Sequence record: OZ336095.1
Reading direction: 5' to 3' (one strand)
DNA length: 64,000 nt
Source: a phage
Of the stretch, positions 27,213-28,817 are shown piece after piece. The notes under the pieces are model-generated. The model did no database searches and was not told where the DNA came from. It saw only the letters and a program-made list of their open reading frames with translations. Both the position numbers and the translations under genes were made by a program. How positions within the stretch are numbered: position 1 is the first letter of the stretch; each line of letters starts with the position of its first letter.

Positions 27213-27286
27213 CATCACTTAAAAATCCTCTTAGAAGACTCTTAAGTGATGTAATCGAATTTTTATGTAGCTCCGATTAACTACCC
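27213..27286. repeat. conserved dual-hairpin module, copy 1
   Basis: perfect 10-bp inverted repeat CATCACTTAA-N19-TTAAGTGATG followed by TAATCGAA...TCCGATTA hairpin and ACTACCC; near-identical block recurs at 28604-28699. Confidence 0.6.
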
Positions 27287-27350
27287 GCACTTTACCAAAC
27301 CTCACCCTACCCTACCAGACCTTACCTAACCGCGCCGTACCTCATTAAAA
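27287..27350. repeat. C-rich decamer-phased tract (region A, right)
   Basis: 10-nt units with recurring TACC/CACC; same strand asymmetry. Confidence 0.5.
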
Positions 27351-27370
27351 GACCCTCTTAAAGACCTTTT

Positions 27371-27396
27371 AAAAAGGAGCCTCCGAAGAGGCTACC
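27371..27396 (-). terminator. intrinsic terminator for - strand gene 27405-27845
   Basis: on - strand GGTAGCCTC ttcg GAGGCTCC followed by TTTTT. Confidence 0.6.
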
Positions 27397-27404
27397 TAGT
27401 CAAC

Positions 27405-27845
27405 TTAGAAAGGTTTTCTACGTTGCTTGTTAATGTTAGCTTTCATAGCAGCTAAATGGTTTTGCTGTTCAATCAGTCGTGAGCGTTCTTGATGGCTAAG
27501 TGCCATAGTGTTCACATTCTCAATCGCTTGAGTGGCTTGCTTTAAAGCACGACCAATCTTACCAGACATTTTACGTTTTGCAATAGTTGCTTGATGTTTA
27601 GGTTCAACCACACGATAGCCAACACCCATTGAAGCAACCAGATAAATCTTCTCTTCTTTAAGAAGCTTTTCAATAAACTTCTCAAGTCGGTTTAGTCGTG
27701 TAAGTGCATAAGCCTTCATTTCATCTTCGTACTTAACAATGTCACCTTGATAAGTTGGCTTCACAATACCTAAGAAGGTGTCCATCTCAGAATGTGATAC
27801 AGTGTCACCGTAACTGAACTTTGCTGCTAATGCTTTTGTATTCAT
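27405..27845 (-). CDS. hypothetical protein (cassette gene 2)
   Basis: 146-aa ORF with basic C-terminal third; own terminator downstream. Confidence 0.4.
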   Translation of the reverse strand: MNTKALAAKFSYGDTVSHSEMDTFLGIVKPTYQGDIVKYEDEMKAYALTRLNRLEKFIEKLLKEEKIYLVASMGVGYRVVEPKHQATIAKRKMSGKIGRALKQATQAIENVNTMALSHQERSRLIEQQNHLAAMKANINKQRRKPF

Positions 27846-27847
27846 AA

Positions 27848-28435
27848 TTAAACGTTACCTTCTGAAATAACTTCTACAGAAAAACGACCAAAGCGTGGAC
27901 GCCAATCACCTACACCACAAAGGTTACCAGCATTTTCCAGAACCATCAAGAGTTCCTCTTTGGTGATTTGCTCTTCATCGAACATCAAACCGAACTCTAC
28001 AGACCAGTCACGGAAGATTGGACGGTAGCTCATAACTCGTGCTGTACCAATCTTAACAGACTTAGCATAGATAAAGTCTGGATTCTTAGCAAGTTCTTGT
28101 GGGTTTGCTGGACAGTTCTTGATAGTCATTGGGAAGACTACATCTGTCAGCATAATGGCTCGGTCAATTACCTTACCAAGTTTGTTGAGTTTTGCACCAG
28201 ACTTGATACAAGCCTCAATCATCTCACCGTTCATAACAAAACCTAGCTGCTCATCGTAGTAACAAGAGGTTACCAGTTGGCTTTCTGCTAAGAGCGCATA
28301 GTCTTCGTCAGTCTTTTTACGCTTACTGGACAGAGACTTGTGATATTTTGTCAGAGGGTTTAATGGGTCTGACAGTGTATCGTTATGGCTCAGGAAAGGA
28401 CGAGTACCAGTGATTTTGATATTTAACAGTTTCAT
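27848..28435 (-). CDS. hypothetical protein (cassette gene 1)
   Basis: start taken at ATG 28435 with GGAG RBS (track start 28450 is GTG); 195 aa; no motif recognised. Confidence 0.4.
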
Positions 28436-28530
28436 AGCATTTAGCTCCACACTTTAGTTTATTGTTAAGTTGTTTGTAAAGAACCCTCAACAGAAGACTC
28501 TTTAGAAACTTGGTAGATTTTTAACGTGGC

Positions 28531-28600
28531 TACTACCATCCACCCACACTTTACCATACCTCACCGCGCCTTACCCGACCGGGCTGCACCTTGCCTTGCC
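28531..28600. repeat. C-rich decamer-phased tract (region B, left)
   Basis: 10-nt units each ending in CC (tactaccatc cacccacact ttaccatacc ...). Confidence 0.5.
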
Positions 28601-28603
28601 AAA

Positions 28604-28699
28604 CATCACTTAAAAACCCTATGAGATAACCTATCGAGTATAATTTAAAGGCTCTTAAGTGATGCAATCGAATTTTAATGTAGCTCCGATTAACTACCC
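28604..28699. repeat. conserved dual-hairpin module, copy 2 (enlarged loop)
   Basis: same CATCACTTAA / TTAAGTGATG arms but 41-nt loop containing TATAAT, then CAATCGAATTTTAATGTAGCTCCGATTAACTACCC matching copy 1. Confidence 0.6.
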
Positions 28700-28777
28700 A
28701 TACCCTACTTTGCCTTGCCGTACTGTACTTTACCCGACCATACCGGACAATACTTAACCCGACCTCGCCCTACCGGA
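28700..28777. repeat. C-rich decamer-phased tract (region B, right)
   Basis: TACC recurs at the start of most 10-nt units (taccctactt ... tacccgacca taccggacaa ...). Confidence 0.5.
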
Positions 28778-28817
28778 CATCACTTAAAAACCCTCTTAGA
28801 AAGACTCTTAAGTGATG
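28778..28817. repeat. third copy of the CATCACTTAA-N20-TTAAGTGATG palindrome
   Basis: sequence almost identical to 27213-27251 (loop CCTCTTAGAAAGACTC). Confidence 0.6.

Follow-up and report, generated by a model that had tools for sequence, protein, structure and literature searches.

Systems called Viral Interference Programmable Repeat (VIPR) are known from two 2026 preprints (bioRxiv 10.64898/2026.04.26.720920 and 10.64898/2026.04.26.720927; hereafter.720920 and.720927). They combine a minimal RAMP protein of ~20 kDa, Vipr, with an accessory protein, vap, and with guide RNAs (vrRNAs) composed of 9-16 YNNGG repeats and a conserved 3' tail, which in the clade of phage SUSP1 includes a hairpin and a pseudoknot; the main target of SUSP1-clade guides is a satellite phage of E. 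coli (.720920). Cryo-EM places one Vipr protomer on each repeat, with the pseudoknot capping the 3' end (.720927). The NN dinucleotides pair with double-stranded DNA, each third target base – usually the codon wobble – being skipped, and the VIPR complex represses transcription of the target (.720920,.720927). Guide expression, copurification with Vipr, ribonucleoprotein formation and silencing are reported in these texts for SUSP1 only (.720920,.720927); vap is described there as a winged-helix-like DNA-binding accessory protein, and VIPR itself as minimal RNA-guided DNA binding that is free of a protospacer adjacent motif and is a proposed ancestor of CRISPR RAMP effectors. Here we analyse a 64,000-nt stretch of phage DNA (record OZ336095.1; ‘the window’ means this whole stretch) in which a hairpin recurs between positions 27213 and 28817. 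We read the region as a SUSP1-clade locus of type II VIPR, encoded on the minus strand, with the hairpin as its probable punctuation, and put the probability of this reading at about 0.93.

The window derives from a Felix O1-like phage (Ounavirinae). Escherichia phage allfine matches it best (97%), and the region recurs in 244 phage records. The VIPR system is already known for the sister phage SUSP1, whose proteins are near-identical to those encoded here: Vipr agrees at 191 of 195 residues (98%) and vap at 145 of 146 (99%), identities that lie above the preprint’s >90% protein-identity cut-off and thus place the locus inside the SUSP1 clade. As in SUSP1, the two genes stand in the same order by a DNA ligase gene, YNNGG vrRNAs with a 3' pseudoknot occupy both flanking intergenic regions on the coding strand, and the 1-nt-skip rule yields guide matches in an E. 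coli satellite. Unlike SUSP1, which has one guide upstream and three downstream, this phage has two on each side; its NN strings differ from those of SUSP1, and therefore its targets differ as well. It also has three hairpins of the class that we call H-type, one of them with a 22-nt insertion. What goes beyond the published system is the punctuation hairpin with its three structural classes, the guide set and predicted targets of this phage, and the replication of the skip rule.

Guides, pseudoknots and proteins of the locus

A periodicity scan, independent of the array parser, revealed four 5-nt-periodic NNACC arrays lying between the hairpins, which read as YNNGG on the minus (coding) strand; it found no YNNGG array elsewhere in the 64-kb window and none in the opposite orientation. 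Each of 20 related loci likewise has 1-5 such arrays, most of them 4-5, in the two corresponding intergenic regions. Two of the minus-strand repeat tracts are upstream of vipr, namely U1 (28698-28777; 16 YNNGG units, 11 of them canonical) and U2 (28544-28603; 12 units), and two follow vap, namely D1 (27285-27344; 12 units) and D2 (27143-27212; 14 canonical units). Across 825 units from 69 unique arrays the NN positions carry 0.09-0.11 bit; the conservation values for GGY in such a comparison are partly imposed by the array parser. Read 5' to 3' on the minus strand, the locus begins with a promoter-like site (P1), followed by hairpin C, U1, a pseudoknot, hairpin B, U2, a pseudoknot, a hairpin of a third class, vipr and vap; after vap come a terminator-like hairpin, an L-type hairpin, D1, a pseudoknot, hairpin A, D2, a pseudoknot and a terminal hairpin.

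Each tract is thus followed by a 3' pseudoknot on the same strand: at 28665-28697 for U1 (stems S1, GTAG/CTAC, and S2, TAATCG/CGATTG), at 28510-28543 for U2 (variant stems GTGG/CCAC and GGTAG/CTACC), at 27252-27284 for D1, and at 27109-27142 for D2 (variant stems AAGG/CCTT and GGCAG/CTGCC). The first-pass annotation of this DNA had noticed that two copies of the hairpin adjoin the same further segment, which it described as a second hairpin and tail. The copies do share it, as a near-identical 35 nt on the plus strand (27252-27286 and 28665-28699), and the segment is the vrRNA 3' pseudoknot of D1 and U1 seen in reverse complement. Covariation supports both helices of the pseudoknot. Among 22 unique tails S1 occurs as GTAG/CTAC, GTGG/CCAC and AAGG/CCTT, and S2 as TAATCG/CGATTA, AGTCTC/GAGACT, GGTAG/CTACC and GGCAG/CTGCC; 93% of the cells are paired, 9 of 11 pairs show compensatory changes, and the covariation score is 0.591 as compared to 0.242 in shuffles (0 of 500 reach 0.591) and at most 0.166 in slid-partner controls. 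As the recognition of this locus shows, reading of sequence alone can flag VIPR loci via their conserved guide tails.

The vipr gene (27848-28435, minus strand) encodes a 195-aa RAMP protein with a conserved C-terminal glycine-rich loop and at least 520 homologues. An AlphaFold (AF2) model built from 35 homologues reached a predicted local distance difference test (pLDDT) score of 93.5, and a Foldseek search of this model against the PDB returned as top matches Csm3/Cas7, the backbone subunits in CRISPR effectors of types III and VII, with E values from 7.5e-5 to 1e-3 and template modelling scores of 0.45-0.54; 38 matches had E <= 0.001, nearly all of them Csm3/Cas7. All residues published as contacts of GGY – H17, E71, M72, R138, C173, D177, W178 and R179 – are found in the Vipr of the window when it is aligned to that of SUSP1. 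The adjoining vap gene (27405-27845, minus strand) encodes the 146-aa accessory protein. Pfam, NCBIfam and PADLOC hold no family for Vipr or vap, and PHROGs assigns them ‘unknown function’ only.

With the Csm3/Cas7 backbones of class 1 CRISPR-Cas, Vipr shares the RAMP fold (RRM core, glycine-rich loop and thumb) and the use of one protomer per fixed RNA step; in both systems a variable guide is joined to a conserved structured handle, and consecutive guides are parted by hairpins. The two differ in that VIPR has a 5-nt period with sequence-specific recognition of GGY, whereas CRISPR has a 6-nt period that lacks sequence specificity, and in that VIPR is encoded by a phage, uses a non-contiguous guide (NN only) and acts by silencing instead of cleavage. 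Furthermore, the locus has no cas1/cas2, Cas6 or CRISPR repeats: a repeat search for a CRISPR array gave the hairpin, tail and pentamer families only, and the neighbours are the ligase, vap, a secreted protein and a helix-turn-helix (HTH) regulator. Another likeness is to TRAP on the trp leader (11 G/UAG triplets with 2-3 nt spacing), where an oligomer also reads a triplet about every 5 nt on single-stranded RNA; TRAP differs in being a closed ring of unrelated fold that serves attenuation control and guides no DNA recognition. Readings of the pentamers as a TRAP-like site, a G-quadruplex/R-loop replication origin, a primase-site cluster, an antisense Rho rut site, iterons or a terminase wrapping site were dropped after the RAMP fold and the preprints had been found.

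By the mechanism published for VIPR, the locus would give rise to four vrRNAs, two from upstream and two from downstream of vipr-vap, each composed of 12-16 YNNGG pentamers followed by an H-type pseudoknot of ~33 nt. One Vipr protomer per repeat would sequester GGY, coating the guide and leaving the NN dinucleotides exposed to double-stranded DNA, where pairing with every third base skipped would lead to repression of target transcription. The phage would aim this machinery at a satellite element of E. coli.

The hairpin repeated at the guide boundaries

Six copies of the 10-mer CATCACTTAA, three per strand, are present in the 64-kb window and make up three inverted pairs; shuffled sequences contain it 0.36 times on average and never six times. 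The pairs lie at 27213-27251 (hairpin A), 28604-28664 (hairpin B) and 28778-28817 (hairpin C), exactly where the first-pass annotation had listed them as copies 1, 2 and 3. Hairpin A sits directly 5' of D2 and hairpin B directly 5' of U2; hairpin C is located between P1 and U1, with no guide upstream of it. Every H-type hairpin stops one base short of a guide tract. In hairpin B, which carries the 22-nt apical insertion, the 10-mers are separated by 41 nt, and a TATAAT hexamer, likewise noted earlier, is present on the plus strand at 28639-28644. On the sense strand the insertion contains TATACT with no -35 element at 16-18 nt, and the promoter scan made no call there. Other phages (loci L001, L006 and L017) also carry this insertion (TTTAAATTATAYTCGAWAGRKTATCTCATAGGG), but they have it in the intergenic region downstream of the gene pair, which suggests that hairpin modules move from one region to the other.

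Folding of both strands, which had been proposed as a check, points to the minus strand. As minus-strand RNA, hairpin A forms an unbroken 18-bp stem (-21.1 kcal/mol, z -7.3), hairpin B a 17-bp stem (-21.7 kcal/mol, z -6.1), and hairpin C folds with -16.5 kcal/mol (z -5.3). On the plus strand just the 10 outer pairs of hairpin A form (-9.9 kcal/mol), because four invariant G·U pairs turn into mismatches there. Two further hairpins of the locus retain this fold with other sequences. The L-type hairpin (27340-27377, minus strand; -11.1 kcal/mol), the 3' arm of which includes the first D1 unit, and the vipr-proximal hairpin of the third class (28472-28509, minus strand; 16 bp, -13.6 kcal/mol), which has the H-type fold with another outer stem and overlaps a weak promoter-like site at 28451-28480, have in the window and in relatives the same 16-17-bp fold with other arm sequences (for the L-type, CCTTTTTAAAAGG...CTTTTAATGAGG). 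The guide-bracketing hairpin thus comprises three sequence classes and one conserved fold. In an alignment of H- and L-type hairpins 95.5% of the cells are paired and five pairs are compensatory, a score that 0 of 500 shuffles reach.

These results bear on the suggestion that the inverted repeats are DNA operators, the 10-bp arms being bound by a dimeric regulator – the HTH protein encoded at 26129-26458, or vap – that controls the flanking genes. We regard it as extremely improbable. The 10-bp arms are perfect in all three copies, an HTH_3 regulator gene is located 1 kb away, and a VIPR preprint calls vap an accessory protein that binds DNA, all of which would suit an operator; however, the 17-18 bp stem needs the G·U pairs of minus-strand RNA, which become mismatches when the opposite strand folds or the DNA forms a cruciform, and in the L-type and vipr-proximal copies the arm sequence has changed with the pairing retained, the opposite of what is expected of an operator. 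Moreover, the arms lie 19-41 nt apart, unlike a dimer site. The alternative that the annotation had offered, an RNA element, proved right in kind, since hairpin and tail belong to small guide RNAs; it had been read on the wrong strand, and the pentamer tracts and the link to the gene pair had been missed. The repeated element is real and belongs to a VIPR system, in which it would act at the RNA level.

Could the hairpins instead be ordinary intrinsic terminators, or 3' hairpins that stabilise mRNA, unlinked to the guides? Their stems are stable and a run of five U lies within the 3' arm, but the U-run is inside the stem and not after it, and hairpin C comes after a promoter and before a guide. 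Within the locus a terminator scan called a single site (27378-27393), with one more outside, and none of hairpins A, B and C; the called site belongs to a hairpin that resembles a terminator, having UUCG as its loop as well as a U-run, on the minus strand directly after vap (27372-27393). A generic terminator would recur, yet the element is limited to the two intergenic regions, being found neither after other genes nor in any other intergenic region of the 64-kb window. Taken together, this makes a terminator or stabilising hairpin very improbable.

The third suggestion was that of a recombination-prone cassette. PeSL cassettes of T4-type phages consist of an early promoter and a stem-loop and act at the DNA level. 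The modules studied here resemble them as repeated intergenic stem-loops by variable genes, and differ from them in that each hairpin lacks a promoter and in that the pairing is RNA-specific. In the same way, the modules could be mainly recombination cassettes that shuffle the genes or guides they flank: near-identical modules bracket the two-gene unit. Relatives differ in guide number (4-5) and order, the insertion-bearing hairpin is upstream here and downstream elsewhere, and BLAST alignments are broken into 2-5 pieces in both intergenic regions. Against this stands the lack of a promoter per cassette, which is a hallmark of PeSL: three minus-strand promoter-like sites are found in 2.2 kb, a count not above that of shuffles, and none is inside hairpins A, B or C. 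In addition, the VIPR preprints demonstrate an RNA-level role of the modules in the sister phage SUSP1. A primary role as cassettes is therefore unlikely in our judgement; what survives of the suggestion is that module number and position vary among relatives. Recombination between modules plausibly shuffles guides, and we view it rather as a by-product through which guides diversify. As a separate observation, guide D1 is identical here (27285-27344) and in at least one other locus (L006:4107-4166), though the adjacent guides differ; single guides appear to be exchanged or kept as units.

Within the VIPR reading, the 17-18 bp hairpin is probably punctuation, either at guide boundaries or at processing sites. 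It sits exactly between the pseudoknot of one guide and the first repeat of the next or, in the case of the first guide, after the promoter, and there would set guide boundaries or insulate them; a double-strand-specific host RNase would most likely cut it, and it would be absent from the mature guide. According to the preprints, guides do not exceed ~100 nt, and the 12-repeat vrRNA1 of SUSP1 has 12 protomers along with the pseudoknot. In our parse of SUSP1, the 12 units after its hairpin amount to 60 nt of repeats with a tail of ~33-40 nt; set against the reported ~100 nt, this leaves no room for a 39-nt hairpin in the mature guide. We tentatively propose, at a little under even odds, that the guide-bracketing hairpin is the signal for guide biogenesis in type II VIPR arrays and the functional counterpart of the CRISPR repeat hairpin, such that a cut by a double-strand-specific host enzyme such as RNase III releases the vrRNAs and sets their 5' ends, and recombination between copies swaps guides between phages. 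Such a role for a hairpin was found in neither preprint, as far as their text was accessible. As an obvious candidate signal for cutting guides from a precursor, the inter-guide hairpin would be useful for multiplexed VIPR guide arrays. Rfam gave no match at E <= 1 in 26500-29500 and nothing relevant in six related loci, and the Felix O1 genome paper makes no mention of the element.

Guide matches to E. coli satellites

Of 5,426 complete E. coli genomes, 474 contain a chromosomal element with a baseplate gene of up to ~93% DNA identity to the phage’s own (window 13488-14285). This satellite-like element measures ~10-14 kb and has genes for recombinases, for a methylase, and for an HTH, a tape-measure and a baseplate protein; several insertion sites are seen, namely within mdtG, between yciI and tonB, within a DUF72 gene near yecN/yecD, and between ymdF and wrbA. 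We scanned the NN strings of the window’s guides against eight copies (L032-L039) with skips of 0, 1, 2 and 3 nt. With a skip of 1, U1 matches one site of a ~185-aa satellite gene at 29, 27, 26 and 24 of 32 positions in four satellites, the NN falling on codon positions 1-2. Likewise, D2 matches the satellite serine recombinase gene at 23, 21, 20 and 20 of 28 positions in four satellites, and the skipped base is the wobble. When the order of units is shuffled, the maximum is 23 for U1, 21 for D2 and 18 for D1, and in the eight satellites skips of 0, 2 and 3 stay at background level for the window’s guides.

The rule also holds beyond this phage. When 56 unique guides from 21 Ounavirinae loci were compared with four satellite copies, 22 reached at least 80% with a skip of 1 and 0 of 56 did so with a skip of 0, 2 or 3, an independent reproduction of the 1-nt-skip code on one E. 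coli satellite family. No self-target with an NN match of at least 80% was found in the 64-kb window, where the best self matches are at 62-71%. Two of the eight satellites carry a pentamer array of their own (L036:1999-2069 and L037:2704-2774), on the strand opposite to the satellite genes in the orientation of these two loci; the accessible preprint text remarks that some satellites encode vrRNAs, and these arrays fit the remark.

Several points weigh against the VIPR reading or parts of it. Among the guides, U2 has no target in the eight satellites sampled, and the best match of D1 (20 of 24) occurs once and has the skipped base on codon position 1 instead of the wobble; because of this position we treat the D1 match as tentative, and it may have arisen by chance. 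Full-length exact NNx patterns of D1 and D2 gave 0 matches in IMG/VR, which is why the satellite was located through the Felix-like baseplate gene. For vap, the homologue search, which was k-mer-limited, gave near-identical sequences only, and the AF2 model built on this basis is weak (pLDDT 73, with residues 74-82, the wing region, below 50). As to the hairpin, the H-type taken alone is nearly invariant, with one compensatory pair and a score that 52 of 500 shuffles reach; its covariation thus rests mostly on the H-versus-L contrast, and the evolutionary events behind this contrast may be few. The accessible text of neither preprint describes an inter-guide hairpin, the word ‘hairpin’ being used there for the tail alone in one and nowhere in the other. 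That the hairpin is missing from the mature guide we infer from reported guide lengths only. Finally, the locus anatomy, the protein identities, the RNA covariation, the strand specificity and the guide-satellite matches are observations made on this DNA and its relatives; vrRNA expression, guide ends and processing would follow SUSP1, from which they are carried over by analogy.

Distant loci and neighbouring features

Arrays of GGYNN on the coding strand also flank homologues that share only 37-45% identity with Vipr. These homologues come from unrelated phages and prophages, namely viral contigs, Rhodococcus and Xanthomonadaceae prophages, and metagenomes; GC content is 61-65% in the two groups of prophage loci. 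A second gene homologous to vap adjoins vipr in distant loci, with the common motif G.GYRVV.P. On a Streptomyces phage-like contig (GC 67%) a short pentamer run follows the gene pair, where the array scan made no call. The CATCACTTAA hairpin is absent from all of the distant loci examined; as these keep the arrays and the gene pair, we take arrays and gene pair to be the conserved core and the hairpin to be a feature of the present lineage.

Other structures are found between guides in such loci. Downstream of vipr/vap in a Rhodococcus globerulus prophage (L027:6117-6654) there are five GGCNN tracts, each followed by a tRNA-like minihelix consisting of an acceptor-like stem and a T-arm (GGCGGTTCGATTCCGCC), two of which ARAGORN calls as tRNA-???. 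Judged from their sequence, the tRNA-like separators of the L027 lineage suggest processing by RNase P/Z. The accessible preprint text mentions hammerhead-interspersed and staggered arrays for VIPR, and does not mention tRNA-like separators. In two further loci (L021:4150-4900 and L029:6020-6420) hairpins with GNRA tetraloops (GCAA, GUAA, GGAA and GAAA) and compensatory stem changes lie between the guide tracts, and are another kind of structured punctuation.

In the window, the genes around the VIPR locus are all on the minus strand. The DNA ligase gene (29033-30169) lies upstream, a gene for a small secreted protein (26635-27018) lies downstream, and the HTH_3 regulator gene (26129-26458) follows at 1 kb from the element. 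P1 (28848-28875, minus strand) reads TTGACA-16-TATACT, with 11 of 12 consensus matches, and is a putative promoter by its motifs. Between it and the ligase gene we noted an open reading frame for a strongly hydrophobic 48-aa peptide (MFSTVILFILVVFVLSYVAS...; 28883-29029, minus strand), which is unannotated in the related records inspected. At the other end of the locus, the D2 tail runs into the terminal hairpin (27063-27110, minus strand; 19 bp followed by a U-run, -17.8 kcal/mol). The loop of this hairpin holds the -35 hexamer of the next gene’s promoter-like site (TTGACA-17-TATTTT), so that signals for termination and re-initiation are nested. Upstream of the VIPR locus the window also contains a 27-nt tandem repeat of ~2.2 copies (20254-20325); it could be the equivalent of repeats that the Felix O1 genome paper describes inside genes.

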